Shown: piece after piece, positions 16,981-38,002 of the stretch
How the letters are laid out: the number at the start of each line of letters is the position of its first letter
How positions within the stretch are numbered: the first letter of the stretch is position 1
Assembly: GCA_045222195.1 (NCBI GenBank)
Contig: JBGUXN010000019.1
Coordinates: forward strand, 1 to 58,225
Direction: 5' to 3'
DNA: 58,225 bases
From: Bacilli bacterium
GTDB taxonomy: Bacteria > Bacillota_I > Bacilli_A > RFN20 > CAG-826
Notes under the pieces: model-generated
Databases searched by the model: none
Told to the model about the DNA's origin: nothing
What the model saw: only the letters and a program-made list of their open reading frames with translations
Position numbers and translations under genes: made by a program

Positions 16981-17044
16981 ATGCTTGCTCCTTATGCTGT
17001 GTACTACCATCATACCGAAATATATGGTTGTTTGAAACACAAAT

Positions 17045-21344: not shown

Positions 21345-21347
21345 AAG

Positions 21348-22109
21348 ATGTTATTTCTCGCTGTTGATGATGAAAACCTCCAACTTAATAAGCTCGTTGA
21401 TGCTTTAAAAGAAGCTGATCCAAGTGCTGAGATCTTATCTTTTAATAATCCTCTAGTGGCCTATGAAGCAGTTAAGAAAGCTAAAATTGATGTTGCTTTC
21501 TTAGACATTGAAATGGGTGGTATGAACGGCGTTGAATTAGGCAAGAAGTTAAAACAACTTAATCCAAATATCAATATCATCTTTGTAACTGGTTATGACC
21601 AATACGCGATTGATGCTTATTCAATGCACGCTTCTGGTTATTTAACTAAACCTGTGAGCGCCGATCGCATCAAAGCGGAACTCGCTAATTTAAGATATCC
21701 AATGCCTGCTACTAATGACCAAAATAAGCTTAGAGCGCAGTGTTTTGGACAATTTGAAGTATTTTATAATAATAAGCCAATTAAGTTCTCTAGAAGCAAA
21801 ACAAAAGAGATGTTAGCGTACTTAATTGATAGAAGAGGTGCGATGGTTTCTGTTAAAGAATTATCAGAAGCATTATTCGGGGAAGATAAGGGTTCATATA
21901 TCAGAAATTTAGTCGCAGATTTAAGCAATGCTTTGAAGGAATTAAATATCGAAGATGCCTTCGTTAAACGCTTCAATTCTTATGGTATAGATATCACTGT
22001 TATTTCCTGTGATTATTATGATTATTTAAAGGGTGAGGCGTACGCTGTTAAGGCATATCGTGGCACCTACATGGAGCAATACTCCTGGAAAAAGATTGCC
22101 ACTTTTTAA
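21348..22109 (+). CDS. Response regulator (receiver + SARP-like winged-helix output)
   Basis: VDDE, FLDIEM, FVTGY, YLTKP; C-term CFGQFEV...KTKEMLAYL...CDYY...YRGTYM. Confidence 0.9.
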   Translation: MLFLAVDDENLQLNKLVDALKEADPSAEILSFNNPLVAYEAVKKAKIDVAFLDIEMGGMNGVELGKKLKQLNPNINIIFVTGYDQYAIDAYSMHASGYLTKPVSADRIKAELANLRYPMPATNDQNKLRAQCFGQFEVFYNNKPIKFSRSKTKEMLAYLIDRRGAMVSVKELSEALFGEDKGSYIRNLVADLSNALKELNIEDAFVKRFNSYGIDITVISCDYYDYLKGEAYAVKAYRGTYMEQYSWKKIATF

Positions 22110-22134: not shown

Positions 22135-22168
22135 AAATGACCGGCCATCAAAGGTCGGTTAATTTTTA
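22135..22168 (+). terminator. Intrinsic terminator after the two-component genes
   Basis: TGACCGGCC-ATCAAA-GGTCGGTTA followed by ATTTTT. Confidence 0.75.
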
Positions 22169-22359: not shown

Positions 22360-22388
22360 TTGATTTTATCTTGTTGCGCTTTTATATT
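22360..22388 (+). promoter_or_regulatory. Candidate promoter of the 11-gene operon
   Basis: TTGATT-N17-TATATT with another TTGTTGCG in the spacer; AAGGAGG RBS before ATG 22422. Confidence 0.55.
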
Positions 22389-22421: not shown

Positions 22422-23111
22422 ATGAATTTAAAAAAGAAAAGTGGTTTAATTAGCGCTGTTATCGCGCTTTCCTGTGCATCATTAGTCTCTGTTGGCTTTG
22501 CTTCCTGGGTTATTTCCCAAGGTGATGCCAAGACAGTTGACGGAAGCATTGTTGTTGATACTGTTCAAACAAAACAACACACAATCACTGTTTCTCCAAC
22601 AACTGGCACACAAATCTGCTTCACAAGACCAGAAACTCCAAGTGCTACAACTTATTCTTGGTTAAGTGAAACAACATCTACTTATGAAAACTTAGTTGCT
22701 TCATTTAATGTTAGCGTTGCCAATGTTGACGGAACTGCTGCTGCCGCGAAAGCCAAATTCAGTGCCACACTCAAATCTGGCGTTGTCAGTGGTGAAAACT
22801 TCACTGAAGACGCTTCTAATGCAGGATATCTTGGTGCTGCCGCCGCTACATATGTTGGCGCTTTACCAACACCAGTCGTTGCTGATGGTTCAGTTTCAGA
22901 TGGCGCATGGTCAACAACCGTGACAGTCACATTCACTTGGGGCGCATACTTTGGAAATCAAAACCCATATTATTTCTATAACGCTCATAAGGCTACTGAC
23001 ATTAAGACCGGCTCAACAACATATGCCGCTGATGCAAACACAGCTTTATCTGCTCTCAATACTTTCTTGAGCGGAATCAGCTACAGATTGTCCTTAAGCT
23101 TTGCTGATTAA
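22422..23111 (+). CDS. Secreted protein with SipW-class-like signal peptide (candidate major fibre subunit)
   Basis: Basic N-terminus, hydrophobic stretch, then SVGFA-SWVIS; Ser/Thr/Ala-rich; FTWGAYFGNQNPYYFY motif shared with the next gene. Confidence 0.7.
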   Translation: MNLKKKSGLISAVIALSCASLVSVGFASWVISQGDAKTVDGSIVVDTVQTKQHTITVSPTTGTQICFTRPETPSATTYSWLSETTSTYENLVASFNVSVANVDGTAAAAKAKFSATLKSGVVSGENFTEDASNAGYLGAAAATYVGALPTPVVADGSVSDGAWSTTVTVTFTWGAYFGNQNPYYFYNAHKATDIKTGSTTYAADANTALSALNTFLSGISYRLSLSFAD

Positions 23112-23123
23112 TAGGAGTTTTTC

Positions 23124-23843
23124 ATGTCAAAAATTACAAGAAGATCCTACAAACGTAAAAAAATCGTAATGGGCATTGCCCTATTAGGTGCTATTGGTTT
23201 AGTATCCACAGGTTTTGCGGCTTGGGTTCTTTCTTCAAATGCCAGTAAAGAACAATCTACTGGTATCAAAGTTGGTGTTGTCGCCGAAAACTCAATGACA
23301 ATTACAAATATCAAAGTTAAAGGCCTCGATACCAAAAGAAGTAGTCCAACATTAGGTGAAGAAATCGAAACCAATGATTTCTCATTCAACCCAAAATGGA
23401 ACGACAATACAGGTCGTGTCCGTTTCGGTGCTGAAGGTGATGATTGCGGTGAACGCTTATCATTAACTATCTCCGGTACTATTACAGAAGCACAAAACCT
23501 CGGTTCATTAACCATTGGACCAAAATCTGTCCCAGATAAAGTTGGCCAAGCAAAAGAAGCGAACTATATCACAGTTCCAGCATGCTTGCTTGATACAGTC
23601 ACTTTAGTGGAAAACACAGATTATCAAATCAAAGTTAACGATGGAATTACTACTGCTGATTTCTCATTCAAAGTGGAATTTGGTTGGGGTTCCTTATTTA
23701 ACGGTATGAATCCAGCGGAATATTATGACGATATGTCTGAAACAGATGTTCCAACTTCTGAGATCAACGACACATTAACCGCGATGCACGGTTTACTCGA
23801 TGGTTTAGAAGTTTCCGTGGAGATTATCGCTCACGTTAACTAA
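23124..23843 (+). CDS. Paralogous secreted protein with SipW-class-like signal peptide (candidate fibre subunit)
   Basis: STGFA-AWVLS junction; FGWGSLFNGMNPAEYY motif. Confidence 0.7.
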   Translation: MSKITRRSYKRKKIVMGIALLGAIGLVSTGFAAWVLSSNASKEQSTGIKVGVVAENSMTITNIKVKGLDTKRSSPTLGEEIETNDFSFNPKWNDNTGRVRFGAEGDDCGERLSLTISGTITEAQNLGSLTIGPKSVPDKVGQAKEANYITVPACLLDTVTLVENTDYQIKVNDGITTADFSFKVEFGWGSLFNGMNPAEYYDDMSETDVPTSEINDTLTAMHGLLDGLEVSVEIIAHVN

Positions 23844-23878
23844 TTATTAAAAACCACAAAATTGATTAATTTATAAAC

Positions 23879-24907
23879 ATGTCCTCAACAGATATTATTG
23901 CACTCATAGTTACAATTATCGGTGTTGCCTCGTTTGCCACAGTCGTCACGATTCTCTTTCGTAACTATATAAGGTCACAGATCAAGGAAATTAATCTTGG
24001 TAATCGCGATATTGAGATTATTGATTTGATGATTTATGAAAGAGATCCAAACGTCATAAAGAAAAGGAAAGCAGGTTCAATAGCGAAAAACGTTATTTAC
24101 TATGCTTTCTTAGCCATTGTTATTCCAGTATTTGGTTTATCCATCTATAGCAGGATTAAAAACAATGTCACTAAGTTTGGTGAAAACTTCGTGATGGTTG
24201 TGGCATCCGGTTCAATGTCACAAAGAAATGAGGCTAATGAATATCTCGTTGAGCATAACTTAACTAATCAATTTAACACGTACGACCTTATTGTCTTATC
24301 AGGCGTTAAGGAAAGTACTACGCTCGCTACCTACGATGTAATTGCCTATAAGAATGACAAACATGTCAACGTCATTCATAGGATTATCGGTATCGATTAT
24401 ACAGAGGGTGAACCCCGCTATATCACGAGAGGGGATTCAAACTCCGCGACAGATACCTACCATCCAAAAAGGAGCGATGTGATTGGTAAATATACGGGAA
24501 AGAGAATTCCAGGAATCGGTATATTTATCATGTTCTTCCAAAGTTACGCTGGAATTGTGACAATCCTCTCTGTCGTCTACTGTTCATTTATGATTTCCCA
24601 CTTTACAAGAAAAATGGACGAAGCCACCGAAGAGAGAAAAGAAATGCTATTACAGCTATTCAATGTTGATGACATGACGGAAAGCGATCCGAAAGTCATG
24701 TCCCTTAGACAACATAACACCATCTTCTATAAAGGCTACGCCTATATCGTTGATCCCGATGGGACGCCATCGAAAAGAGAGATGAACGAGGAAGAGAAAG
24801 AAAAATATGGTGTTAGTGAAGAGCTAATAAAAGTCAACGACTTAGAAGAACAAAAAGAAAATGAAAATGAAAACACCGAAGAAAATATCGGTGAGCAAGG
24901 AGAATAA
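23879..24907 (+). CDS. Signal peptidase I, SipW/ER-type (S26B)
   Basis: VVASGSMS (Ser), VIHRII (His rather than Lys), YITRGDSN...D; flanking TM helices. Confidence 0.88.
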   Translation: MSSTDIIALIVTIIGVASFATVVTILFRNYIRSQIKEINLGNRDIEIIDLMIYERDPNVIKKRKAGSIAKNVIYYAFLAIVIPVFGLSIYSRIKNNVTKFGENFVMVVASGSMSQRNEANEYLVEHNLTNQFNTYDLIVLSGVKESTTLATYDVIAYKNDKHVNVIHRIIGIDYTEGEPRYITRGDSNSATDTYHPKRSDVIGKYTGKRIPGIGIFIMFFQSYAGIVTILSVVYCSFMISHFTRKMDEATEERKEMLLQLFNVDDMTESDPKVMSLRQHNTIFYKGYAYIVDPDGTPSKREMNEEEKEKYGVSEELIKVNDLEEQKENENENTEENIGEQGE

Positions 24908-24911
24908 GATT

Positions 24912-26717
24912 ATGATTAGACCTTATATTACAAGAAAGAACTTAATTGCCATCGCAATTGCGTCCTTATATGCAGTTTTATTTGTCTTTGTCGGTTTATG
25001 TTTAACCGCGACCGAAGACACAGTAATTGCAGAAACAAATATGTTCTTAGGCATGGCTAAAGCCATGGGATTTACAATGATTACTTTCAGTGGACCAAAT
25101 GGGGTGATATCGCTCATTTTGACCGCCATTTACATTGTCGTTTTAGTATTTGGTTTGATCTATGTAAGAAGATTCCAAGTCATTAATAACGTCAAGTGGA
25201 AGAATCCTAAATTATGGTTAGCCTATATCGGAGTGGTCGTAGTCTCCGTTGGTTTATCCATTGGTTTATCTTTATTATTCACACTTGATGATATTGGTAG
25301 TTTCGGCATGATGATGACTTTAATTGGTGAGTCCCTTGCTATCACCTCAATTGCCGCGTTAGGAATTACCGCGATTGTCTTACCAATCTGCATGTTATTC
25401 GTTAACTTCCGTAAAGTTGATAAGCCTTATGCTTTCTTCCATAGTGATAAGTTTGATGACTTAGGCGAAAGAGAAGAAGAACAAGAAGGCGACGTCATTT
25501 CTTCTTTTGAAGGCGAAGAAGAAAAGAACACCACTGTCCAAAACTATATTCAAGGTGCAGTTGGTGATGGCTCAGGCCAAGCGATTGCCTTAGATGGCAG
25601 AGCCAGAGAATTAGATGATAGAGAAAAAGTCTTCCCAGGTCTTTCTAAGATTGACGTTGACTATGATGGTTATTCTATCGACACTATTCCAAGCGATGAC
25701 ATTAACTTGGAACAATTAGTCAATAGATTCAGAAACTATTTAGCCAAAGAAGAAAAACTCTATTACGACATCGATACCATTCGTATCTTTGTTTCTGGGC
25801 TTAACGCTACTAGATTAAGTATTTTAGAAGGTTTATCTGGTACAGGTAAATCATCTTTACCAAGATACTTTGCTAAGTTCATTAACGCTAACGTTACATT
25901 CTTACCTGTCCAAGTTACTTGGAGAGATAAGACCTCTATCTTAGGTTACTTTAATGACTTCTCAAAGATTTATAACGAAACCGACTTCTTACTTAAACTC
26001 TATGAAGCTTCCTATAATCCAGACGCTATCCATATCTTCGTTTTAGATGAAATGAACATCTCTCGTATCGAATACTACTTTGCGGACTTCTTAAGCGTTC
26101 TTGAGTATCCAAGCGATCAATGGAAGATCAGAATTATGCAACTTCCATTTGGTTTCGTCCCACCAGCGAAGTTAGAAGGTGGTTATATCACCATTCCAGA
26201 AAACTGTTTCTTTGTTGGTACAGCGAATAAAGACGATTCTACATTCAGTATCGCAGACAAAGTCTACGATAGAAGTACCGTCATTAGCTTTGATAATAGA
26301 AACGAACCATTCGAAGTCACTGGTGACGCTGGTAGCATCAGAATGTCCTATAGCAAATTAAAAGGTTTATTCGAGGGTGCCACTAAGGATGAGAAATATC
26401 AAATGAGCCAAAGAGATTATGAAAAGCTCTATCAAATCACAGATTACATCTATGAACAATTTGAAGTGGCCTTTGGTAACCGTGTCATGAATCAAATTAA
26501 CGCTTTAGTGCCAATCTTCGTGGCCTCAGGTGGTAAGAAAGAAAACGCTTTAGACTTTATCTTAGCAAGAAAAGTCTTAATTAAATTAGAGGGTCGATTT
26601 GAAGAATTCGTCAAACCAGCCTTAAAGAATATCTTAGACTTATTAGACAAAGTCTATGGGGAAAAGGAATTCCCAATTAGTAGAAAGTTCATCAATAGCT
26701 TAATTAAAAAACTCTAA
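24912..26717 (+). CDS. McrB-like AAA+ NTPase with an N-terminal multi-pass membrane domain
   Basis: About 4 TM helices, acidic linker, Walker A GLSGTGKS, Walker B FVLDEMNISRIEYYFADFLS, GTANKDDST, KVYDR; ATG 24912 after AAGGAG. Confidence 0.88.
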   Translation: MIRPYITRKNLIAIAIASLYAVLFVFVGLCLTATEDTVIAETNMFLGMAKAMGFTMITFSGPNGVISLILTAIYIVVLVFGLIYVRRFQVINNVKWKNPKLWLAYIGVVVVSVGLSIGLSLLFTLDDIGSFGMMMTLIGESLAITSIAALGITAIVLPICMLFVNFRKVDKPYAFFHSDKFDDLGEREEEQEGDVISSFEGEEEKNTTVQNYIQGAVGDGSGQAIALDGRARELDDREKVFPGLSKIDVDYDGYSIDTIPSDDINLEQLVNRFRNYLAKEEKLYYDIDTIRIFVSGLNATRLSILEGLSGTGKSSLPRYFAKFINANVTFLPVQVTWRDKTSILGYFNDFSKIYNETDFLLKLYEASYNPDAIHIFVLDEMNISRIEYYFADFLSVLEYPSDQWKIRIMQLPFGFVPPAKLEGGYITIPENCFFVGTANKDDSTFSIADKVYDRSTVISFDNRNEPFEVTGDAGSIRMSYSKLKGLFEGATKDEKYQMSQRDYEKLYQITDYIYEQFEVAFGNRVMNQINALVPIFVASGGKKENALDFILARKVLIKLEGRFEEFVKPALKNILDLLDKVYGEKEFPISRKFINSLIKKL

Positions 26718-26726
26718 TACTCTTTT

Positions 26727-28055
26727 ATGAAAAGAAGTGAACAAGTCAATTTAACTAACCAGATTGAGACTATTCAAGCTTTTAGCAAAAAGCATAGTGA
26801 CTTATCTAGTTTCTATAAAGAAATCGATAATGTGCCACTGGTGTCGATTCAAGATTTATCATTTGAAAAAGACATTGCTTTATTTAACGAACTCTCATTC
26901 ATTCTTTCGGTTGTCTTATCAATTATCGCTAAGCCACATTTAAACACTAAGAGTGATGAAGTCATCGCTAGAAGCGGCGAAGTCAGCGCGTTAAGCGAAG
27001 AAGATTTTCAAAAGACTCTAAGAGATTCTTCCATATGGAGAAATCAAGGTAACGGTAAGTTATTACCAGAATACCTCTATTACCATAAGCACGAAGATGA
27101 GATTAGAATCTATGAAAATATTTTCATCGTTTATTTAGTCAATGAGATTAACGCGTTAGCGCATCAATATAGTGCTCTTTACGTTTCTTTATTAAGCGTC
27201 GCGGACCATGAAACTAATGTCTTATTAATTGATGATACCTATCAAATGAAAGCGATGGATGAAGTCAATAATGTTCTTCATCGTATTGAGCAAATTAAGA
27301 ACACTTATTTCTATAAAGAAGTGAGTAAAGCTAAATCTAGACCAAAGGTCTTTAGTCCAACGAACATCTTACTTAAAGATAGACTCTATAATATTTGCTT
27401 TAAGTTCTATAAGAAGTTCTTCATCCATCAAGAAGAAGGCTCCTTAGATCAAGACTTATTTATATATTATTATGTTTTAATTTTAAGAAAGTTACGCGAG
27501 AACGACTTTAGACTTAAAGAAGGTAAAGAAAAGATCTTCTCTAATGGTAAGTTAGCCATTCCAGAAAAGATTGCTTTAGCTAATAACAACTATCAAATCG
27601 AAGTGGAATCTAGAATCGATAAGAATTTATTCATCTTTAACTATAGTGAACATGATGGGTCTAATAAGGCCACTCACTTACTCTATATTAGAAGTGATGA
27701 TAATGCTCCATTTGAATATGAAGATATTGGTCCAGATTACTTCGTAGTATCTATTGAAACATTATCATTATGGTATTTATCAATGCTCTTAAATGAAAAA
27801 CTCGTGAAGATTAATAAGACCTTCAAGAGTGAAATGGAAATGATGCGTACATTTGTGGATTCTCACCACTACGTCGTATCAGCTTCCGAAAAGATCTATT
27901 CATCATATTGCCCATCTTGTAAAGGCAAAGATTTATCAGAAACGAATGGTTTCTATGTCTGCGCTGATTGTGGCGCAGTCTACCGTTTTGTTAAAGACAA
28001 ACAAAATAGAGGTCATATCGTATTTAGTAACTTAATCAATTATGGAAGAAAATAA
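26727..28055 (+). CDS. DUF2357/McrC-like protein with C-terminal Zn ribbon; nuclease motif not evident
   Basis: IYENIFI and PTNILLKDRLYNICFKFY resemble DUF2357 motifs; follows the McrB-like gene; CPSC...CADC at the C-terminus. Confidence 0.7.
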   Translation: MKRSEQVNLTNQIETIQAFSKKHSDLSSFYKEIDNVPLVSIQDLSFEKDIALFNELSFILSVVLSIIAKPHLNTKSDEVIARSGEVSALSEEDFQKTLRDSSIWRNQGNGKLLPEYLYYHKHEDEIRIYENIFIVYLVNEINALAHQYSALYVSLLSVADHETNVLLIDDTYQMKAMDEVNNVLHRIEQIKNTYFYKEVSKAKSRPKVFSPTNILLKDRLYNICFKFYKKFFIHQEEGSLDQDLFIYYYVLILRKLRENDFRLKEGKEKIFSNGKLAIPEKIALANNNYQIEVESRIDKNLFIFNYSEHDGSNKATHLLYIRSDDNAPFEYEDIGPDYFVVSIETLSLWYLSMLLNEKLVKINKTFKSEMEMMRTFVDSHHYVVSASEKIYSSYCPSCKGKDLSETNGFYVCADCGAVYRFVKDKQNRGHIVFSNLINYGRK

Positions 28056-29232
28056 ACTAGTTAAAGAAGCTCCACAAGAGGAAGCTCAGGAAGAAAAGAA
28101 AAAGAAAACAATATTAATCGTCGAAGACGAAGATATTTCTTATGAAATCTTAGCCACGATGCTCAAGGATGATTATGAAATATTGCGCGCTAATAACGGC
28201 GATGAAGGTCTCCGCATTTTAAGAGCGCAAGCTAAAGACATCTCTTTAGTGTTGCTCGATATTTTAATGCCGGTCATGGATGGCTTAGAAATGCTCAAAG
28301 TCAAAGTCGGAGAAAGAAGAATCGCTAATATTCCTGTCATTGTTTTAACTAGTGAAAAAGCCATGGAAGTCGAAGCTATCAGAATGGGCGCTTTGGACTT
28401 CATTAAAAAACCATTTGAAAGCCAAGAAGTCATCAGAGCGAGAGTTTGGAGAATTGTTGATTTATATGAAAGACATAAAATCCAAACTACAGACCCAAGT
28501 GAAGATATTCCAGCGATTAAGATTGTGGACCTTTATAAATCATATGGTCCAAAAGAAGTCTTAAAAGGTTTAAACCTTGAAGTCTTTAAAGGCGAATTAT
28601 TCGGTTTTATTGGTCGAAATGGTATTGGTAAAAGTACCACTATCGATTGCATGATTGGTGTTAAGAGATTTAACTCTGGCACGATTGAAATTGAAGGCTA
28701 TGACATTACAAAAGAACCTTTAATTGCCAAGTCTAGATTTGGATATGTCGCTAGCGAACCAACGTGCTATGAAACGATGACTGGTTATGAGTATTTAGAA
28801 TTCATCGCTTCCGTTTATCAAATCAGCGAAGCGGAATTTGCCTCTAACGTCGAATATTTAACTAAACGTTTAGTGCTTACAGATGAAGATTTAAGCAAAT
28901 ATATTTCTTCCTATTCTCATGGTATGAAGCAAAAACTATGTTTAGTGGCTTCATTACTCAATAATCCAGACTTATGGATTTTAGATGAACCAACCGTCGG
29001 TCTTGATATTATGGCGGTTGAAGAACTCAAAAAGATGATGAGAGAATACGCGAATCATGATAAGTGCGTCTTTATTACCTCTCATAACATCGATATCATC
29101 GCCAAGATCTGCGATAGAGTGGCCATCATCAATGATGGTAAAGTCGTCGAATTAATGGACTTAAATAGAGATCCAAATAAGAGATTACAACTCGGTCGTA
29201 TCTTCTTAAACATTTTTGGAGCTAATCAATAA
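28042..29232 (+). CDS. Receiver domain fused to an ABC transporter ATPase
   Basis: ILIVEDE, LLDILMPVMDG, FIKKP; then GRNGIGKST, YSHGMKQK, ILDEPTVGLD, ITSH. Confidence 0.92.
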   Translation: MEENKLVKEAPQEEAQEEKKKKTILIVEDEDISYEILATMLKDDYEILRANNGDEGLRILRAQAKDISLVLLDILMPVMDGLEMLKVKVGERRIANIPVIVLTSEKAMEVEAIRMGALDFIKKPFESQEVIRARVWRIVDLYERHKIQTTDPSEDIPAIKIVDLYKSYGPKEVLKGLNLEVFKGELFGFIGRNGIGKSTTIDCMIGVKRFNSGTIEIEGYDITKEPLIAKSRFGYVASEPTCYETMTGYEYLEFIASVYQISEAEFASNVEYLTKRLVLTDEDLSKYISSYSHGMKQKLCLVASLLNNPDLWILDEPTVGLDIMAVEELKKMMREYANHDKCVFITSHNIDIIAKICDRVAIINDGKVVELMDLNRDPNKRLQLGRIFLNIFGANQ

Positions 29233-30827
29233 TGTTATCTTTAATCTTCAAAGACTTTAAATTAATCTTTGCAGGTACCCAACAAAATAAGTTAGGTAAG
29301 TATTTAAGCTTGCTCTTCACTATCGTGGTGGGAATTTTATTTATTGTCATTGAAGTGTATTTATTCCAAGCAATCTTTACCAAGATGGAAGCGGTTAAGG
29401 GTGCGAGTAGTTCTTACTTCACTTTGTTCCTATTTATCATTTCTACCTTGTTAACTATCTTCTGCACATTCACGGCGATGAAGTTATTCTTTAACTCCGT
29501 TGATAACGTGAAGTTAAGTGCTTTACCAGTTAGTGAATCAAAGATTGTCTTATCTAAATTAATATTCTTATTCATCACCATGTATGCGATGAATTTAACA
29601 TTCAACTTACCGTTATTTATCACCTATGGTGTGATCTATAGGAAGATGTTCTCTTTCTACTTTAATGCGGTATTTTATCCAGCCTTCCTCTTCTTCTTCC
29701 AAGCAGGGGTGGCCTTATTACTTGTTTATCCAGTGAAGTTATTACTTAACTTCTTAAAGAAGCATATCATTGTGCAGTTTGTGGTCGTCTTCATTCTTGC
29801 CTTTGGTTTAGCCTTCCTTTATTCACAAGCTTTGAACTTATTTATCAATTTAGTGGCTAATAACAATATTTCGCAGTTATTCACCACTGATACGATTAAC
29901 GCGGTTAATTCAGCATCTAAATTTATGGTTCCTGTTAACTTCTTAGTGGAAGCATTTGTGAATAACGTTAGAACGGCGATATTCCCATCAATCGCTATTT
30001 CTATTGGTGTATTTATCATCGGTTTATCAGTAGCGATCTACTTCTATAACAAGTTCTTACAAAACTTCACTAACGATACAAGAAGTATTAAAAAAGAATC
30101 TTTAAAGATGGTAAGTCCTACAAAAGCACTTATTAAAAAAGAATTAGTGTTACTTCTTAGAAACTCTAACTTCATCTTTAGCTTTACTGGTTTATTAATG
30201 GTTGAACCATTCTTAAGCTATTTAATCATCAAATCAATGAACACTATTTTCACATCTGGTTCTCTTGCTTACTATTTAGCCAGTGTGCCAAACATCATCG
30301 CTTTTTTAGATGTCATGTTAATGATGTTAATTAGTGCGATTATCTATCAAGGCGCGAACGCTTATATCACTAATGAAGATAAAGCGGTGAGATTAATGAA
30401 ATCCATGCCAGTATCTTCCTACAAGCAATTAGCAATTAAAGTTTTAATCCCACTATCGATGTCTTTAGCGGCTTTACTCATTAGCTATATCTTATTAGCG
30501 GCCACTCAGACATTATCAATCATTCCAACATTATACGGATTATTAATGAACATTATCTTTATAGTTACATTATCTATAGTTTCTTTATTTGAAGAATTAC
30601 ATGTTAAACGCTACCAAGAAAAGAATACCTTATTAAGTGGTATCTATACTTACGCTGTTCCAGTAGTCTACTTCTTATTAGCGTTATTACTTTGCTATTT
30701 CCAAGTGAACTATCACTTCATTTTCCTCATCGGTTTAGGAGTGGTTATTCTTTCACTTGTTCCATATATGATTAAGTTTAAAGAGAGGGTGGACAATGAT
30801 TTCCTTTCTTTGGAGGTCGCTAACTAA
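29232..30827 (+). CDS. ABC-2-type exporter permease (about 12 TM)
   Basis: Two hydrophobic halves with LSALPV..SKIVLSK and LMKSMPV...QLAIK motifs; translationally coupled to the ATPase. Confidence 0.85.
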   Translation: MLSLIFKDFKLIFAGTQQNKLGKYLSLLFTIVVGILFIVIEVYLFQAIFTKMEAVKGASSSYFTLFLFIISTLLTIFCTFTAMKLFFNSVDNVKLSALPVSESKIVLSKLIFLFITMYAMNLTFNLPLFITYGVIYRKMFSFYFNAVFYPAFLFFFQAGVALLLVYPVKLLLNFLKKHIIVQFVVVFILAFGLAFLYSQALNLFINLVANNNISQLFTTDTINAVNSASKFMVPVNFLVEAFVNNVRTAIFPSIAISIGVFIIGLSVAIYFYNKFLQNFTNDTRSIKKESLKMVSPTKALIKKELVLLLRNSNFIFSFTGLLMVEPFLSYLIIKSMNTIFTSGSLAYYLASVPNIIAFLDVMLMMLISAIIYQGANAYITNEDKAVRLMKSMPVSSYKQLAIKVLIPLSMSLAALLISYILLAATQTLSIIPTLYGLLMNIIFIVTLSIVSLFEELHVKRYQEKNTLLSGIYTYAVPVVYFLLALLLCYFQVNYHFIFLIGLGVVILSLVPYMIKFKERVDNDFLSLEVAN

Positions 30828-33322
30828 TGGCTTCTAAGAAGAATCTCGTTGTATTACTTATCATGCCTTTTGCCATCTCTATTCTTTCGTTTACCGCGAT
30901 TAATATGACTTTTAATTTAATCGATAACGATATTTTGAATATTGATTGGGATTATAAAGACAATGAGTCCTTCGCTTTAACCGATAATCAATACGCGCAT
31001 AAATTAAAAGCCACAGCGATTAACGATAGAAATTATCCAACCGCTCAAACATTAGTGTGGTCAGTTTATAACGCTGATGCAGCGGACTTAGGCAATCACG
31101 CTGAAATCGTCACTAAAGGTAGCGAATCATATTTACATACCTTAAGCGTGGGCAATGTTGTTATTACAGTATCTAACGATAAAGGCAATGTCCAAAAGAA
31201 GATGAACGCCATTATCTATAACAATAACGTTATTCTCTTTAATACCACCACTAAGGGATCGCAATCTAATGTTGATTCAACAATGTACTACGGCGAATAC
31301 GATGTGAACGATAGAGGCACTAAAGTATTATCTTCATTTGGTTATACCTTAGAGAGTGATTGCTTGAACCATGATTCTAAAGTCATCTTAATTGATAACT
31401 CCACGAATGTCAGTGTGGACACCGTTAAGAATGTCGTCTCATTTAAGTCCGCAGGTGATGCCTACTTAACATTTGGTTTTGATAGTCCAGCGTACACTGA
31501 TACATATACCTATAACTTCAAAATTGTGGAAGATGGTGTCAATGTTTATGATTACGATGATTTGCTCTTCTGCACCAATAAATCACAAAATGGCGAAATC
31601 GCCGTTTTAAGACGTCATTTTGAATCTTTAAGCAATACATATGTCTTAGATAGTAATGGCCGTCCTACAAGCCAAAAAAAGAACAATGAGACCGAACTAT
31701 TTGGTAAGTATAGCAACGGCAAGTATTCTTTCAAGAATGAGATCTATCAATTTGAAACAAAATACAATCAAGAATTCATTAAACAGTGGAATGAATTCGC
31801 TAAGAATAATTCTGGATACGAACCAGTCACTGATAAGGTCAATGTTGGTTTACATGTGCAAAAAGACTTCTACGGTAATGGCTTCACACTCAATTTACAT
31901 AACTTAACTTATCCATATCAAACGATGTCCGTTATTGACCAAGACGGCAATACACAAATTGTGCCTAAGTTAAGTGAAGATAACTTATTTAGAGGACCAT
32001 TACCTTACTATACCTTAGGGGATCCAAATAACATGCCACTTGTGACCGCTTATGGACAAGACAATATTGGTATGTACGTCGAAGGTGAAGATATCACCAT
32101 CAACGATGTCAATATCAAGAACTGTGACTTTGGTAATAACTTAGCGAACTTAGATACCGTTGGTACAGTCATGGAAGTTTATGGTTCTAACATCACTGTT
32201 AAGAACTCAAGATTATCAAACGGCAAGACAGTATTTAGAAGCTTTGGTGATAAAACCAGGGACAACGCTAATATCGTATTAGATAACTGTATGCTCTCTT
32301 ATTCCAGAAACTTCTTAGTCAGTTCAGGCAACTATAACTTCAACAAAGTTGATGGTTCTAGAACATATCAATTCGTCCATGAAGATGGAAAGAGAGAAAT
32401 GCATAAGATTGATGACTATCTATCCGACACTAAAGTGGATGGCAAGAAGTCATTAGGCGACCAAGCCCTTGAAGATTACTTGATGGGCGTCGACAAAGGC
32501 TACTTATTAGAAACCATGAGATCAATCCAAAATGGCTTAGACCTCGCTAGAACACCTGGTAATAGATACTATGGAGACTTAACCATTAATGACACATTGT
32601 TCTACCGCTCAGGTATCTCAAGCATCGCACTAGAAAGCTTGTTCAATGGTCCATTCCTCTATAACGCCACTCCAACACTTGTTGGCGAGATCTTTGCTAA
32701 AGCGGAAGGCCTATTAGACAATACAAGCCTTGTACCATTGCTTCCAAGACAAGTTGGAGGTATCTCATTCCCAGTTGAGATAAAACTCTCTGGAGAAACA
32801 AAGTTCTACGATTACAAGACATCAAACTTATTTGATATCAATGGCCTCGTAGGCGAACACATCTCAAATATCATTGGAACATACGCGCCCGAATATGCCG
32901 GTCTAATTAGTTTAGATAGGATATTCCCAATCAAAGATGTCTTGTTAGAAGACGGAGGCAAGTTAGGCGCAGTCCTCAAGGCTGATGGATCAAACAACCT
33001 TAATGTTCCAATCGCCTTCTACGGAGGTGGCATTAACATCTCTAGAGTGACTTGCGATGAAACATTCACTTATAGAGAGCACTTAATCGATTTGGATAGC
33101 GATGATTCCAATGTTGACGCAATGGATGTCGACTTCCTGAAGGCCTACGCCAAGATTCCACAAGCAGGTGATGGCATTATGGCTAACGCGGCAAACATCG
33201 TTCTCAAATGTGTCACCATCGTCTCAGGATTCAACCCATTTAAATTCACATTAGCCAAAGGTGATGGCTACTTATACAACGAGGCACCAAAGGTGCAAGA
33301 CTTAATCAATAACGCCAAGTAA
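30827..33322 (+). CDS. Large membrane-anchored or secreted protein, probable Ig-like plus beta-helix regions
   Basis: N-terminal hydrophobic anchor; FYGNGFTLN, ITINDVNIKNC, NITVKNSRLSNG, IVLDNCMLS parallel beta-helix-like repeats. Confidence 0.65.
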   Translation: MASKKNLVVLLIMPFAISILSFTAINMTFNLIDNDILNIDWDYKDNESFALTDNQYAHKLKATAINDRNYPTAQTLVWSVYNADAADLGNHAEIVTKGSESYLHTLSVGNVVITVSNDKGNVQKKMNAIIYNNNVILFNTTTKGSQSNVDSTMYYGEYDVNDRGTKVLSSFGYTLESDCLNHDSKVILIDNSTNVSVDTVKNVVSFKSAGDAYLTFGFDSPAYTDTYTYNFKIVEDGVNVYDYDDLLFCTNKSQNGEIAVLRRHFESLSNTYVLDSNGRPTSQKKNNETELFGKYSNGKYSFKNEIYQFETKYNQEFIKQWNEFAKNNSGYEPVTDKVNVGLHVQKDFYGNGFTLNLHNLTYPYQTMSVIDQDGNTQIVPKLSEDNLFRGPLPYYTLGDPNNMPLVTAYGQDNIGMYVEGEDITINDVNIKNCDFGNNLANLDTVGTVMEVYGSNITVKNSRLSNGKTVFRSFGDKTRDNANIVLDNCMLSYSRNFLVSSGNYNFNKVDGSRTYQFVHEDGKREMHKIDDYLSDTKVDGKKSLGDQALEDYLMGVDKGYLLETMRSIQNGLDLARTPGNRYYGDLTINDTLFYRSGISSIALESLFNGPFLYNATPTLVGEIFAKAEGLLDNTSLVPLLPRQVGGISFPVEIKLSGETKFYDYKTSNLFDINGLVGEHISNIIGTYAPEYAGLISLDRIFPIKDVLLEDGGKLGAVLKADGSNNLNVPIAFYGGGINISRVTCDETFTYREHLIDLDSDDSNVDAMDVDFLKAYAKIPQAGDGIMANAANIVLKCVTIVSGFNPFKFTLAKGDGYLYNEAPKVQDLINNAK

Positions 33323-33331
33323 AGGAGAGAA

Positions 33332-34411
33332 ATGATTATGAAGAAATTAGCAAAAGTATTAGTATTAACCACAATGTGCTTAGGCATGCCACTACTCAAT
33401 GCATGTTCATTCTTTAGAAGTAACAACAATGGTGAAAATGGTATTAAAAACATTGAAGTTACTCAAGATGAATTAGGTAATGCCATTATTACCATTCACT
33501 ATACCGATAGCACTAAGAAACCAGTAACCTTTACTCTTCCAAAAGGCGAGAACGGTCAAGATGGCGCCGGTATTAAAAGAGTGGATTACACCTCTGATGA
33601 ATATGGCGTCACCACAGTCACCATTACATTCACCAATTCTTTAGATCCAGTTTCATTCACCTTACAACCTGGTAAGAGCATTGCGGACGTTAAATTCGAA
33701 AAAGACGAATCAGATAACACTTTGATTATCTTTATCGATAGCGATGGTAATGAATTATCACCAATCACAGTTTTCAAAGGCGATACAGGTGAACAAGGCG
33801 TAGGCATTATTTCCATCATTTCTAACTATAACGCCGATGGTAGCGCCACATTAACTCTCACCTTAACCGATGAATCGGAATATAACGTTGATATTCCTGC
33901 ACCAAAGGAAGGCAGAGGCATTGAATCAATCATCACTAGAAAAGAAGGCACAAAAGTGTTCTTAGTGATTACATATACTGACGATACATCTGAAGAAGTT
34001 TCCTTCGATGCTGCACCATCATGGACAACAGGCAATGCTAAACCTGGTGATGGTTTCGGATACGACGGAGATTATTACTTCGATATTTCCCATGACATCA
34101 TTTACATCAAAGAAAACGGCATTTGGACAGTCGCAGTCGACTTTAATACAAACTCCGCTGAATACTCAGTCATCTTCGAATTAAATGACACCACAGCTGA
34201 ACCAGCTACATTTGCAGTTGGACAACGCTCATATGTCATTCGCAAAGGTGAAACATTCTATTCATCCAATTTAGACATGCCAGTTCCAACAAGATCTGGA
34301 TATACATTCGGTGGATGGTACACATCCTCAACTCCAAATGTCACACATGGTGCTTTCAATAACTTAACACCAGTTTTGAGTGATATGACTCTATACGCTA
34401 AATGGAATTAA
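33332..34411 (+). CDS. Lipoprotein with short Gly-X-Y/beta repeats and a C-terminal InlB B-repeat-like domain
   Basis: Lipobox LNAC; recurring G..G.GI..I...G...TI.(Y/F)T(D/N) units; PVPTRSGYTFGGWY...DMTLYAKWN. Confidence 0.8.
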   Translation: MIMKKLAKVLVLTTMCLGMPLLNACSFFRSNNNGENGIKNIEVTQDELGNAIITIHYTDSTKKPVTFTLPKGENGQDGAGIKRVDYTSDEYGVTTVTITFTNSLDPVSFTLQPGKSIADVKFEKDESDNTLIIFIDSDGNELSPITVFKGDTGEQGVGIISIISNYNADGSATLTLTLTDESEYNVDIPAPKEGRGIESIITRKEGTKVFLVITYTDDTSEEVSFDAAPSWTTGNAKPGDGFGYDGDYYFDISHDIIYIKENGIWTVAVDFNTNSAEYSVIFELNDTTAEPATFAVGQRSYVIRKGETFYSSNLDMPVPTRSGYTFGGWYTSSTPNVTHGAFNNLTPVLSDMTLYAKWN

Positions 34412-34443
34412 TTAAGATTAATTAGATTATAGAAAGGATACAC

Positions 34444-35085
34444 ATGAGAGGTAAGCCAATTAGAAACAAAAATAAGATTCTAGTCGCATTAGTGGCTCTT
34501 TTCACCATGCTCATGTGTACATCTGTCGGCTTTGCCGCTTGGATCACTACTGGTGGTAGTAACGCTACTGCTAACGGCACTATTGATGCCGATACAGTTG
34601 AAGGTGGAGGCGGTAGCCACACTCCACAAAATCTTGATGTCGTGACCATCACAAACGTTGATGAATATCAATACTATGCTGGTAATGGTTTCGTCAATAA
34701 TGGCGTTTATGATGACGAATGCTATCTCACCGGTTCTTGTTCTTTCAATGCCACTAATGGCAAAAAGTGTTTTACAAGTTTCAGAGACAGCAACTCATTC
34801 AAGCTTGATGTTGAACTATCAACAACAGCAAGCGGTGGATTATCTGGCTTGAACATCACTTCTAGTGAAATCTCTTTGACAAGCACAAACTTCACTGTCG
34901 GAAGTCAAAATCCAACTGATTCAACAACGATTACCACCACATTCACCATTACTTGTGGCAGTAACGAATCAGATTTCACTTTTGATTTTTCTGTGAAACT
35001 AGTATATGGCGAAACATTATCAAGCTTCCCAGATTTAAGTTCCGCACCAATCAGCATTAAATTTACACCAAAGGAGAACGCATAA
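34444..35085 (+). CDS. Third secreted protein with SipW-class-like signal peptide (candidate minor subunit)
   Basis: SVGFA-AWITTGGSNATANGTIDADTV parallels SVGFA-SWVISQGDAKTVDGSIVVDTV of 22422. Confidence 0.7.
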   Translation: MRGKPIRNKNKILVALVALFTMLMCTSVGFAAWITTGGSNATANGTIDADTVEGGGGSHTPQNLDVVTITNVDEYQYYAGNGFVNNGVYDDECYLTGSCSFNATNGKKCFTSFRDSNSFKLDVELSTTASGGLSGLNITSSEISLTSTNFTVGSQNPTDSTTITTTFTITCGSNESDFTFDFSVKLVYGETLSSFPDLSSAPISIKFTPKENA

Positions 35086-35086
35086 C

Positions 35087-37966
35087 ATGAGAGCGATTAA
35101 ACGTATTGCGTCTATATTCATGTTCATGGCGTTCGCTATTGGTGGAGTAGCAGAACTCGCTAAAGCAAGTTGGACAACTGGCGATGGAAACGGAAATGAT
35201 AACGCCAATCCTGTCAGTGAAGCCTTTACAAGTTCAGCGCAAGAACCTATCTGCTATAACGCTTCCACAAACGTTAAATATCCAACCATTTATGGTGCTT
35301 TAAATGCAGCAACAAGTGGTCAAACAATCTATGTATATCCTTCACTACATCAGAATTCCACAGTTGTCAGCGGTTCTCCAACTTTAACAACATATGTAAC
35401 AGAGACTAACAATCTTGTTATTAAAAACGGTGTTACACTTGCCCTACCATTCAGTGGCACTTCTGTATCAGAAATGAATACAAGCACCATGCATAACTTT
35501 AGTAACAAATCGAGAATTGATACCAACCTAACTAATGTCCATAAAAATAGAAAAATCTGTTTGAACATGAGAGAAGGCGCGGACATTACCATTCAACAAG
35601 GTGGTACCTTAACCATTGGTGGTAAGTTCTATCAAACTGGTGTCTGTTTAGAATACTGTGAAATTAATTTAGGTTCAGGTTCTTCTATTGCGTGTAACGG
35701 AACTATTAACTGTTATGGCGTTATTAAAGAGCAAAAAGATAGTACAAACACCACATATGACACCACAACATACGGAAACACAAATGACTCAGGCAGAAGC
35801 GTCATCATTTATAGTGGAAGCACACTTAAAACTTACATCTGCTTAAAAGACGCTAAATCAGGTGCCACCATTTTGTCATATAACGATGAGGGCATTTGTC
35901 CATTTAATACGTATGACTTCCCTGGCATTCAAACCTTTATGTCTGTTAAATACGGTGCAACAGTTACTGCCTATGCAGTCATGTTCATTTCTTCTACAAC
36001 TGTTTGCGAATCATTTACCGTCATCAACAATGGATCTTCCGATAGTATGTTCCAATTAAGCAGCGGAGCATCCATTGATGTTGAATACGTGCCTAAGGAT
36101 GCTGAATACTTCACAGGTGCTACTAACACCTGCACCAAGATTTGTATCAATGGTACCGTTAGCCTTGGCAGAATCAAGATTACTGTTAGCGGTCAAAGCG
36201 TTGACACAAATAACTTCTTCTTACCAATCGGCTACAATATTAAGATTGCCGTTTTATCCGGTGGTAATTTACAAACTTCAAAGAGAGTTAAATTCCTCCC
36301 AGGTAGCGAACTCCACGTTAGAAACAATGGTACATTTACTTTCAGCAACCAAGTAACATTCTATAGAGTCGACAGACTTCCATCATCATGGTCATATGGA
36401 AACAAGACCAATGATGCAGTTTTAGAAGTTAATGGTAGCTTAGTGGCTAGTGGTACTTCCGCTGCTATCGGTGCAAGAATCACTCACTCCAGTACCGGTG
36501 GTACAGGTTCTCTTAATTTATCCGCTATTTCTGCCCAAAGTAAATTAACTGTTTCTACAATTGAAGAAGTTAATGGCGCGGATATCAGCGTAACATCAAT
36601 CGGCTTATTCAACATGAATGGCGAATATGTTAACGCTCAATTCAAGAGTGGCCAAACATATACAAGTGGCTATGCAAGCAATAACTACTATTGGAATGGC
36701 GAATACATCGATTCAAGCGATATCACATTCATCATTGCTGAAGCAAGCTTCACACGCAAACTCATTTCTTATAGTGTCTATCAAGGCACCACAAATAATG
36801 CTTCTAACCAAGAAGTGATTGCTGAAGATGTCACAGAAGCTAGATCTTATCCATTCAAGACAAGCAACTACATCCACATCACAACCAAGTATGGCTGTAC
36901 ATTTACTGCAACCGATAGCGCTGGTAACCCAATCACTATCACTAATGGTTGGATTAGATTCTCCGGTGATATCACAGTGACAATTAACCCAGTTGAAGCG
37001 GTTAACTTCCAAATCTCCACAGAGTCTAAGAGTGGCGCTGGTTATTTGACATACAACGTGAAACTCGGTCCAACAAGCGCGGTAAGTGAAACCACTATAG
37101 ATACTTCTAGTGCTAACCAAACCATCACAATGCCAAAAGGCTATTACATTAGAGTCAAGATGCAAGGTTCTGGTGGTTCATATTCATCGCACACCATTAA
37201 ATCAGGAAGTGAGAACTTACCAGATGGCTTCACACACGACAAAGCCGTTCGTGTTAACGGTGATGTCCATGTCCACTTCGACTTCACTGCGGGCTGTATT
37301 ACCGCTGATGCTTTGGTGTTACTCCCAGATGGCACAACCACAAAAGCGGAAAATCTCCATATTGGTGATTTAGTGAAGACATGGAGTTTTGAAACTGGTG
37401 GCTGGGTCGTTGAACCTATCATCTTCTTAGAAGAAATTATAGATGTTCATACAAGAGTTATTACATTGACATTTGATGACAATAGTTCTATTGATGTCTG
37501 TTGGAAACAAGGATTCTTTGATACCGACTTACTAGACTACTTCGTCGTCAACGACGATAACTATCAAGATGCGGTCGGAAGAAATGTCCTCGCGTTCGAC
37601 GGAGATACTCCAGTTACCAAGAGAATCGTCTCCGCAACAAGCGAAGTGAAATTAACATCGACGTATGAAATTCACTCAGGCCATGGCTATCAAATCGTCG
37701 CTAACGATATCTTAACTATCGAACCATTAATTAACGAACATGTCTGGTTCACCGTTAATGAAGATTACAAGTATGACGAAGAACTCATGAGACAAGATCT
37801 TGAAACATATGGTGTCTTATCATACGAAGCATTTGCTGATTATGTCACTGAAGAACAATACGATCTCTTCAATGGTCAATACTTAGCGGTACCAATTGGT
37901 AAAGGCTACTTCACTCTTGAAGAATTGATGGAAATCATCAAACACTTCTTACCAGGTAATACCTAG
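35087..37966 (+). CDS. Large adhesin-like secreted protein with a C-terminal Hint domain
   Basis: Signal ending LAKA-SWTT; Ser/Thr/Gly-rich beta-solenoid-like body; G-CITADALVLLPDG...AENLHIGDLV...YEI...IVANDILT Hint pattern from Cys737 (nt 37295). Confidence 0.8.
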   Translation: MRAIKRIASIFMFMAFAIGGVAELAKASWTTGDGNGNDNANPVSEAFTSSAQEPICYNASTNVKYPTIYGALNAATSGQTIYVYPSLHQNSTVVSGSPTLTTYVTETNNLVIKNGVTLALPFSGTSVSEMNTSTMHNFSNKSRIDTNLTNVHKNRKICLNMREGADITIQQGGTLTIGGKFYQTGVCLEYCEINLGSGSSIACNGTINCYGVIKEQKDSTNTTYDTTTYGNTNDSGRSVIIYSGSTLKTYICLKDAKSGATILSYNDEGICPFNTYDFPGIQTFMSVKYGATVTAYAVMFISSTTVCESFTVINNGSSDSMFQLSSGASIDVEYVPKDAEYFTGATNTCTKICINGTVSLGRIKITVSGQSVDTNNFFLPIGYNIKIAVLSGGNLQTSKRVKFLPGSELHVRNNGTFTFSNQVTFYRVDRLPSSWSYGNKTNDAVLEVNGSLVASGTSAAIGARITHSSTGGTGSLNLSAISAQSKLTVSTIEEVNGADISVTSIGLFNMNGEYVNAQFKSGQTYTSGYASNNYYWNGEYIDSSDITFIIAEASFTRKLISYSVYQGTTNNASNQEVIAEDVTEARSYPFKTSNYIHITTKYGCTFTATDSAGNPITITNGWIRFSGDITVTINPVEAVNFQISTESKSGAGYLTYNVKLGPTSAVSETTIDTSSANQTITMPKGYYIRVKMQGSGGSYSSHTIKSGSENLPDGFTHDKAVRVNGDVHVHFDFTAGCITADALVLLPDGTTTKAENLHIGDLVKTWSFETGGWVVEPIIFLEEIIDVHTRVITLTFDDNSSIDVCWKQGFFDTDLLDYFVVNDDNYQDAVGRNVLAFDGDTPVTKRIVSATSEVKLTSTYEIHSGHGYQIVANDILTIEPLINEHVWFTVNEDYKYDEELMRQDLETYGVLSYEAFADYVTEEQYDLFNGQYLAVPIGKGYFTLEELMEIIKHFLPGNT

Positions 37967-37973: not shown

Positions 37974-38002
37974 AAATCCACTCAGCAATGGGTGGATTTT
38001 TT
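37974..38002. terminator. Bidirectional intrinsic terminator
   Basis: AAATCCACTCA-GCAA-TGGGTGGATTT with A/T runs on both sides, between convergent genes. Confidence 0.85.

Follow-up and report, generated by a model that had tools for sequence, protein, structure and literature searches.

In a 58,225-nucleotide (nt) stretch of DNA from an uncultured rumen bacterium of the Bacilli (contig JBGUXN010000019.1 of assembly GCA_045222195.1, referred to here as the window), we have identified a tight operon of 11 genes (22422-37966, + strand, intergenic gaps of -47 to +35 nt) that encodes a signal peptidase of the SipW/archaeal type and four exported proteins with one distinctive signal-peptide junction in common. 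Two of the four, pA (22422-23111; 229 amino acids, aa) and pB (23124-23843; 239 aa), precede the peptidase gene (23879-24907; 342 aa), and the other two, pC (34444-35085; 213 aa) and a large protein of 959 aa (35087-37966), are encoded at the distal end of the operon. We consider it probable that all four are cognate substrates of the operon's peptidase, by which they would be cleaved. The wider proposal that we favour, and to which we give an even chance of being correct, is that these exported substrates, together with the products of the rest of the operon, build a multi-subunit surface fibre of the type named CoCoPALM.

An earlier note on this DNA, made from the sequence alone, had pointed to a cleavage junction common to the four proteins, and this was confirmed. 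All four open reading frames (ORFs) exist as earlier listed and each begins with a Sec-type signal peptide, in which a basic n-region and a single hydrophobic segment are followed by small residues at positions -3 and -1. The junctions read SLVSVGFA27|S28-W29-VISQGDAKTVDGSIVVDTV in pA, LVSTGFA32|A33-W34-VLSSNASKEQSTGIKVGVV in pB, CTSVGFA31|A32-W33-ITTGGSNATANGTIDADTV in pC and VAELAKA27|S28-W29-TTGDGNGN in the 959-aa protein, the predicted position of the cut following from the -3/-1 small-residue rule and from analogy. The signal peptide thus ends in G-F-A in pA, pB and pC and in A-K-A in the 959-aa protein, and is followed by Ser or Ala and then by Trp, which stands at +2 in all four proteins. 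SipW-class substrates are characterized by an aromatic residue just behind the Ala at which they are cut. Classical SipW-substrate junctions from sister genomes resemble the present one (GGTYA|LF and GTTYA|WF), and because classical TasA-like proteins are found beside SipW-like genes in those genomes, the G-F-A|x-W family is a single sub-branch within a broader set.

Within this genome the junction is seldom found, and among relatives it hardly varies. Of the residues encoded by 1072 ORFs of the genome, 0.88 % are Trp, and A-x-W directly behind an N-terminal hydrophobic segment occurs in 8 of the 291 ORFs that have such a segment. A stricter six-frame scan of the 1.45-Mb assembly for the junction gave six matches, four of which are the present ORFs, lying within 13 kb, while the remaining two are a SipW-type substrate on another contig (C29, see below) and a false match inside a membrane protein. 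Among the best 150 rows of a profile search, all 120 new representatives carried [VTAI]-G-[FY]-[AS]-x-W. It could be argued that the junction is merely a chance resemblance of ordinary signal peptides, as A-x-A-type cut sites are common and the match of the 959-aa protein, A|S-W, comprises only three residues. However, the concentration of four of the six genome-wide matches in one operon, the retention of Trp in every new family representative examined and the recurrence of the junction on pB-, pC- and giant-type proteins elsewhere, none of which had been selected for it, leave this explanation with a negligible likelihood overall, and for pA, pB and pC it is refuted.

For the 959-aa protein the relevant evidence comes from its counterparts. 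In three other genomes, all six of the large proteins (827-1756 aa) encoded directly after pC-like genes carried the junction, in forms such as GFS|TW-LIS, GLS|VW-IIT, GLA|TW-FIT and IYA|SW-IIS that conform to the pattern [AS]|x-W-[ILF]-I-[ST]. The stretches concerned contained eight ORFs of at least 600 aa, and the two that lacked the junction were a homologue of the 831-aa gene of the present operon and a membrane protein. Pairs of a pC-like gene and such a giant were present three times in one genome and twice in another. Because giants that follow pC-like genes carry the junction, we count the 959-aa protein as a true fourth member in spite of the shortness of its own match. By analogy, the junction of the giants fits the role of initiator and adhesin that has been proposed, in the passages considered here, for TapA and AbpB (PMC9674648, PMC9245690). 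The 959-aa protein itself matched nothing meaningful among PDB sequences, and a comparison of the exported proteins with PHROGs was likewise negative. Its C-terminal third is 34-35 % identical to giants in two other genomes, and at residues ~734-790 (37280-37460) it contains a weak Hint/intein-N-like segment (CITADALVLLPDGT...; E 0.0064 for Pfam Hint and 0.011 for TIGR01445, matches that fall short of the respective cut-offs), which could be a self-cleaving module.

Relationships among the three smaller proteins extend beyond the junction. pA and pB align over their full length with 25 % identity (BLASTP, E 6e-10) and are, by sequence, paralogues; they also have in common the motif F.WG..F...NP..[FY]Y, as had been noticed earlier, of which W173 and P182 are invariant in an alignment of the pA/pB family (A1, 49 sequences). 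In BLASTP, pC matched pA and pB over the first ~26-48 residues only (E 4e-7 and 3e-4, respectively), but comparison of the A1 profile with that of the pC family (A2, 29 sequences) gave a probability of 97.9 % and an E value of 4.7e-13 over 94 columns, from the signal peptide through the extension that follows it to the first strands of the domain. On this profile comparison pC is a remote relative of pA and pB. None of the three belongs to a Pfam, NCBIfam or PHROGs family. A word-seeded search returned 109 homologues of pA and 36 of pC, none with a Pfam domain, and an exhaustive profile search extended the pA family to 2196 cluster representatives at E<=1e-3, for which database names offered nothing beyond 'hypothetical protein'. 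In the pC family, G29, F30, W33, G45 and D50 are invariant.

The peptidase gene lies directly after that for pB, and its assignment to the SipW/archaeal type is supported by a score of 67.7 bits against TIGR02228 (cut-off 51.85). Against the B. subtilis SipW equivalog model it scored 65.4 bits with a cut-off of 190, so that it is not an equivalog. The catalytic Ser, His and Asp motifs are intact (SGS112M, IH167RI and GD186SN) and are also kept in nine relatives caught by a pattern search; the protein has three hydrophobic segments and a cytoplasmic tail of ~100 aa. As a LepB-type peptidase is encoded elsewhere in the genome (contig C37), the enzyme of the operon is an extra one. An alternative is that the hydrophobic segment of the four proteins is retained as a membrane anchor, with G-F-A-x-W forming an interaction site at the membrane surface and the peptidase homologue acting on other substrates or as a scaffold. 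Trp is frequent at membrane interfaces, the cores of the signal peptides are unusually conserved in close subfamilies, and residues 10-29 of pC form a helix in the AlphaFold2 (AF2) model, all of which would suit such an arrangement. Nevertheless, the small residues that the four proteins and their homologues alike have at -1 and -3, the preserved catalytic motifs of the peptidase and the cleavage of substrates in the classical homologous systems, as the literature passages drawn on here describe it, make a retained anchor very unlikely.

What follows the cut is also conserved. The earlier note had described a strand motif in three of the proteins, and indeed a segment of the form G-x(0-1)-I-x-[VA]-[DG]-[TV]-V is present in pA, pB and pC, ~12 residues past the junction, with hydrophobic residues that alternate (G-x-I-x-V-D-x-V). 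The N-terminal extension to which it belongs (residues 28-50 of pA, 22503-22571; residues 32-~66 of pC) is common to the three proteins although they are otherwise far apart, and in A1 the mean pairwise identity falls from 76 % in the signal peptide to 57 % at residues 28-50 and 30 % in the globular part. The AF2 model of pA, built on A1, has a mean predicted local distance difference test score (pLDDT) of 84, with 10-residue block means of 91-98 from residue 51 onwards and values below 50 at residues 1-12 and 14-43; that of pC, built on A2, has a mean of 80 and shows a beta-rich domain at residues 67-210, preceded by a stretch (29-62) that stays under 50. In both models the domain scores above 90 while the extension scores below 50. 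In TasA the donor strand consists of residues 28-38, the first 11 after the SipW cut, with contacts made by F29, I32 and F39 (PMC9674648). Since the extension is conserved, is modelled as disordered and sits at the place of the TasA donor strand, polymerization by donor-strand exchange is plausible.

The same observations may be read differently. The cassette may export proteins that do not polymerize, such as a coat, a surface complex or free secreted adhesins, and the junction and extension may serve as a sorting or recognition tag for the peptidase and the GTPase machinery. The cut site is the most conserved stretch of the pA/pB family (mean top-residue frequency 0.98 at residues 23-27 and 0.92 at 28-34), a TasA-like fold or family is not detectable, and the 959-aa protein has the junction alone in common with the others. 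On the other hand, conservation extends 20 residues past the cut, with alternating hydrophobic residues in three paralogues, which is longer than a peptidase needs, and the characterized SipW-type substrates TasA, TapA and BsaA are, in the published passages considered, all fibre or fibre-initiating proteins. We regard non-polymerizing export as somewhat unlikely, and as the most serious of the alternatives.

A number of results weigh against donor-strand assembly and are best considered together. None of the tests applied places the four proteins in the TasA family. No match to TIGR04088, the SipW-cognate signal-peptide model (34 positions, cut-off 19 bits), was found for any of them even at E<=10, the search that the earlier note had proposed thereby giving a negative result; in the whole genome, whose assembly is 77 % complete, this model detected only the protein on contig C29, at 14.7 bits. 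PF12389 (Peptidase_M73, cut-off 22.5 bits) matched neither pA, pB, pC nor anything else in the genome. Structural comparison with TasA likewise yielded nothing significant: the pA model has a mixed alpha/beta fold and not a jelly roll, and in Foldseek searches of the PDB it had no neighbour at E<=0.001 (best E 0.09; TasA fibre 8aur at rank 46, E 0.47, TM 0.18), nor did the pC model, for which no TasA entry was among the 50 matches listed. The A1 profile found nothing under E 0.25 among PDB chain sequences and, against 10 classical TasA-like proteins from sister genomes, aligned over 38 N-terminal columns with 35 % probability; homology of the globular domains with TasA-like proteins is not claimed. 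An invariant Lys is absent from A1 and A2, which contain no conserved residue set suited to isopeptide locking. Both alignments came from a word-seeded search that favours common N-termini, so that the high signal-peptide identity is partly an artefact of the search, and in loci reached through synteny or other routes the hydrophobic cores differ and only ~8 residues around the cut are constant. It may be the need to be recognized by the peptidase, and not polymerization, that keeps the junction conserved, and the low pLDDT of the extension could simply mark a flexible linker. Lastly, pA, pB and pC are joined by BLASTP and profile comparisons into one divergent family, but this does not extend to the 959-aa protein, which lacks the strand motif and matched neither the pA nor the pC profile significantly (E 0.29 and 0.33).

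Some weaker resemblances serve as leads only. The sub-threshold neighbours of the pC model include the cannula protein CanA (7uii, E 0.0087), FimG (5iqm, 0.02), the PapG pilin domain (2wmp_B, 0.028) and AbpA (7ueg, 0.059), in a list that also holds Ena1C and many generic beta-sandwiches. In the ESM Atlas, the neighbours were unnamed clusters, a cluster with the automatic name 'putative SipW-cognate class signal peptide' (0.96 with pA and 0.89 with mature pC) and another in which 22 % of members are Peptidase_M73 (0.91 and 0.86). Two other kinds of pilin were considered and rejected. The proteins do not carry the class III signal of type IV pilins (G|F-x-x-x-E), as the hydrophobic segment precedes G-F-A and polar residues come after it, and family-library scans of the operon found no prepilin peptidase or PilB-type ATPase. 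Nor are they sortase-dependent pilins, as the four C-termini are without LPXTG or a membrane anchor and the genome, 77 % complete, gave no Pfam Sortase match.

Our working model for the proposed fibre is as follows. Each precursor would cross the membrane through Sec and stay tethered by its signal peptide; the peptidase would then cut after G-F-A, exposing an N-terminus of Ser or Ala followed by Trp and the conserved stretch of 20-35 residues, which on its own would be flexible. The freed stretch would enter, as a beta-strand, the globular domain of whichever subunit arrives next, in the manner of TasA, BsaA and AbpA, and because the strand enters the next subunit to arrive, the fibre would grow from its base. 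The first subunit in place would be the 959-aa protein, which has a junction and N-terminal strand but lacks a pilin-like domain and would serve as the distal adhesin, with pC as its adaptor and a shaft made up of pA and pB. The membrane-anchored GTPase and its McrC-like partner may control the timing of, or supply the energy for, the transfer of tethered subunits to the peptidase. Strand insertion, fibre formation, the order of subunits, the part of the GTPase and the division into major, minor and tip components are what we infer. A base-growing fibre joined by N-terminal strands is favoured because the cut, the aromatic residue at +2 and the conserved, flexible, strand-like segment share their layout with known donor-strand systems, a layout that is common to the shaft-like paralogues, the adaptor-like protein and the large adhesin-like proteins; we nevertheless hold this part of the model tentatively, as a possibility a little short of even.

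Between the peptidase and the distal genes, the operon encodes a membrane-anchored McrB-like GTPase (24861-26717; 618 aa), the start of which is overlapped by the peptidase gene by 47 nt, and a protein of 442 aa (26727-28055) that resembles the N-terminal part of McrC (DUF2357) and has a C-terminal zinc ribbon. The GTPase is an NxD variant, with a Walker A motif (G324LSGTGKS), a Walker B motif (IFVLDEMN, 392-399) and the signature GTAN456-K-D458-D, motifs that recur in 18 homologues at the syntenic position, and has four N-terminal hydrophobic segments within residues 28-169. The partner scored 22.6 bits against Pfam DUF2357, just under the cut-off of 23.3, and 20.8 against Zn_Ribbon_TF (cut-off 29), and it had no match among PDB sequences. 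Such a pair might be an anti-phage restriction module that merely lies among unrelated secreted-protein genes, in which case the four proteins would have no joint machinery beyond the peptidase. The match of GTPase residues 301-471 to PDB McrB (6hz4, E 0.0016), the DUF2357-like region of the partner and, as a further point against an assembly role, the match of the GTPase to the PADLOC candidate defence model PDC-M26A (E 6.8e-40) are what would be expected of such a module. The four membrane segments of the GTPase would not be, and a Pfam scan detected no nuclease domain in the partner; in addition, the pair occupies the same slot between the peptidase and ATP-binding cassette (ABC) genes in 18 of 20 loci, with reading frames overlapping or nearly abutting, and the peptidase-linked McrB clade is called non-canonical in the part of Bell et al. 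2024 considered here (PMC11090510). We therefore think a restriction module extremely unlikely. A role of the pair in fibre assembly is in turn speculation, prompted by its fixed position and its membrane anchoring.

The conservation of gene order was assessed in 20 related loci from gut metagenome-assembled genomes, whose record titles are mostly 'Bacilli bacterium', with some Coprobacillus or Clostridia. In every related locus of sufficient length the same order was found: two pA/pB-type genes precede the peptidase in 17 of the 20 loci, the peptidase is present in 19, the GTPase and McrC-like genes in 18, the ABC ATPase in 18 and the 831-aa gene in 14, and loci without one of the cassette genes end before its position. 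Identity to the present proteins was 23-36 % for pA/pB, 42-52 % for the GTPase, 53-77 % for the ABC ATPase and, in the 14 loci that reach that far, 33-45 % for the 831-aa protein; fragments of homologues of the 359-aa lipoprotein follow the 831-aa gene in five loci. That pA and pB change fastest within the cassette suits exposed structural subunits. In an even sample of the class, in which 200 genomes were scored, 10 genomes had pA-family matches and 60 had the GTPase, with both in 9 of the 10. In eight of the nine genomes other than the present one, the GTPase lay within ~6 kb of the pA-family match and on the same strand. GTPases of 58-69 % identity occurred only in pA-positive genomes, the ~50 other genomes having relatives of 21-47 % identity.

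These features make the system probably a variant of the CoCoPALM class, which was named in one paragraph of Bell et al. 2024 (PMC11090510), where its description is deferred to a later paper. That later description was not found in our literature search, which did not cover the supplements of PMC11090510, in which the present sub-branch may be listed. It is because of the genes at 23879-34411, with the McrB-like GTPase, its partner and the ABC transporter, that we place the locus in this class and not with the plain tapA-sipW-tasA arrangement. Like CoCoPALM, as outlined in that paragraph, the present system has an NxD-branch McrB-like GTPase fused to a membrane region, a putative McrC-type partner, a signal-peptidase-family gene alongside (adjacent to the GTPase gene in 18 of 20 loci) and a presumed pilus-like assembly function. 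The definition of the class (PMC11090510) includes an FtsB-like transmembrane and coiled-coil region in the GTPase and coiled coils in both partners, whereas the GTPase described here has four hydrophobic segments and not an obvious single FtsB-like helix. The present cassette also adds an ABC transporter and modules of pC and a giant, and neither substrates nor a junction motif are described in the passages of PMC11090510 considered.

Comparison with B. subtilis tapA-sipW-tasA, as presented in the passages of Bohning et al. 2022 drawn on (PMC9674648), shows several parallels. There too a dedicated SipW-type peptidase is encoded in the operon of its substrates, an aromatic residue stands at +2 (F29 of TasA) and the segment right behind the cut is conserved, in TasA as the donor strand. 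A second protein with the common N-terminal segment, TapA, is thought to supply the first strand of the TasA fibre and so to start it. The differences are that the B. subtilis operon has three genes, and the present one eleven, including those for the GTPase and its partner, the ABC transporter and large adhesin-like proteins, and that our proteins have Trp in place of Phe in a G-F-A|x-W-V-I-S context, match neither M73 nor TIGR04088 and have no detectable jelly-roll similarity. The sipW-bsaA-bsaB-bsaC operon of C. perfringens similarly combines SipW with several secreted paralogues, and the base-growth model adopted above is that of BsaA, in which, according to the parts of the preprint of Kivimaki et al. 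drawn on (PMC11580942), a disordered loop at the N-terminus enters the following subunit, which at that point remains attached through its signal peptide, and SipW cuts afterwards. BsaA differs in having an Asn-Lys isopeptide lock catalysed by Glu, whereas the pA and pC alignments have no invariant Lys, and in its remote homology to TasA, which is not detectable in pA.

Sec-exported subunits joined by an N-terminal donor strand are also described for AbpA/AbpB, the Pyrodictium cannulae (CanA) and the chaperone-usher pilin FimG, AbpB being the proposed initiator and adhesin of its pilus (Wang et al. 2022, PMC9245690). The structural matches of pC to such proteins are, however, all above E 0.001 (TMq/TMt 0.16-0.41), and the present cassette contains no chaperone or usher; archaeal bundling pili differ further in using a generic peptidase, where the present system has a dedicated one. 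A more far-reaching version of our proposal is that the operon specifies a new pilus assembly line that is Sec-dependent and works without sortase, chaperone, usher or type IV machinery, in which subunits retained by their signal peptides would be built into fibres base first through system-specific donor strands, a membrane-anchored ring of the McrB-type GTPase, together with its McrC-like partner, would use GTP to time cleavage by the SipW-type peptidase, pairs of pC and a giant would act as exchangeable adhesin cartridges, and which may be how wall-less gut Bacilli build fibres. We think this version improbable as a whole.

The remaining genes of the operon are as follows. Downstream of the McrC-like gene, the ABC transporter is encoded as an ATPase with an N-terminal receiver (28042-29232; Pfam ABC_tran 90.4 bits, Response_reg 72.2 bits) and a permease with 12 hydrophobic segments (29232-30827). 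The receiver fusion was not seen in the 18 related loci, in which matches to the ATPase start at query residue 141-161. Next comes the 831-aa protein (30827-33322), which has an N-terminal hydrophobic segment without the Trp junction and no match in Pfam, NCBIfam or PHROGs (best PDB-sequence E 0.21), and then a probable lipoprotein of 359 aa (33332-34411; ...LLNA|C, a lipobox read by eye) with a C-terminal Listeria-Bacteroides repeat (Pfam Flg_new 43.2 bits, TIGR02543 31.4 bits). The 959-aa gene starts 1 nt after the end of pC. All genes from pA onwards are on the + strand; pA is predicted to have a signal peptide at residues 1-27 and a globular part at ~51-229, and its gene has a strong ribosome-binding site (AAGGAAGGAGG). 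A consensus scan, which gives pattern matches only, placed a promoter-like site at 22360-22388 and terminator-like hairpins on the + strand at both ends of the operon, one at 22138-22161 that closes the upstream unit and one of 11 pairs with a T run at 37974-37999 that closes the operon.

Directly 5' of the operon, on the same strand, lie genes for a LytS-type histidine kinase (20058-21344; Pfam His_kinase 78.9 bits, HATPase_c 49.6 bits) and a response regulator (21348-22109; Pfam Response_reg 80.7 bits), a two-component pair (20058-22109) that, judged from its position, possibly controls the operon. In four ruminant RNA-labelled libraries, which belong to three studies, there are contigs that cover parts of pA, pB and the peptidase, GTPase, McrC-like and ABC ATPase genes, with none on pC and just 25 nt at the downstream end of the 959-aa gene; such contigs indicate presence in the library and not transcription, and cannot be used to rank the genes. 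The operon is flanked by genes for large membrane proteins (17244-20042 and 38001-39860, - strand) that both end in VanZ-like domains. One of these proteins carries three Big_2 repeats and a hyaluronate-lyase N-beta domain, and a pA homologue of 387 aa (P0064) has the same two Pfam domains, which may represent a fusion or an artefact of gene calling. A phosphoglucomutase ORF further upstream (15340-17070, - strand) starts with an HTH_19 domain (37 bits), either as an unusual fusion or through an over-long start call.

Related gene sets are present elsewhere in the same genome. A second cassette (contig C56:1554-12105, loci L063-L065) encodes four tandem exported paralogues with a different junction (...SGTFA|WYQYS, ...SGTIA|WYQYS, ...GSLA|WYAYS and ...LTLA|WYGAS), followed by a 505-aa McrB-like protein that is 42 % identical to the GTPase at 24861, a 922-aa protein and a weakly SipW-like protein (TIGR02228 25.3 bits, below the cut-off). 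It seems that the junction dialect differs from one such system to the next. A starch locus (contig C29:38617-42888, L024 and L062) contains a third set of the SipW type, in which a 386-aa protein with a starch-binding-like C-terminal part (...GGTFA|AW-AVTDN) and a 675-aa protein (...GSVFA|AY-GVTDN) flank a 347-aa gene that is weakly SipW-like (19.3 bits). Finally, a 143-aa S24/S26-like peptidase above the TIGR02228 cut-off and without a membrane segment (contig C2:30829-34065, L002) clusters with an HPr-kinase-like protein, a PqqD-like protein and an ABC exporter, a set of genes that suggests peptide maturation and seems to have no relation to the fibre system.

No murA or penicillin-binding-protein transpeptidase match was found in the 77 %-complete genome, and among five near-complete relatives that bear the cassette (G057, G160, G195, G174 and G108), four are without detectable murA and transpeptidase genes. 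In the fifth, G108, whose GTPase has the highest identity to the present one, murA and three transpeptidase genes were found. We considered the possibility that the present host is wall-less and did not adopt it, given the completeness of the assembly and the genes of G108; lineages with a wall and lineages apparently without one both seem to carry the cassette.

The junction [VT]-G-F-A|x-W-[VI]-[IM]-[ST] provides a handle with which all components of the system, large adhesin-like proteins included, can be listed for each genome, and such lists form a basis for the design of co-expression experiments. If the fibre proposal is correct, at least 2196 sequence clusters without a Pfam entry would be the structural part of a widespread and unstudied surface-fibre system of gut and rumen Bacillota, and donor-strand assembly would extend to a fold unlike that of TasA. 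The non-restriction branch of McrB GTPases, which has so far merely been named in the literature, would gain a concrete cellular job. With four of the five near-complete relatives lacking detectable murA and transpeptidase genes, the system may also show how wall-less bacteria attach fibres to their surface.

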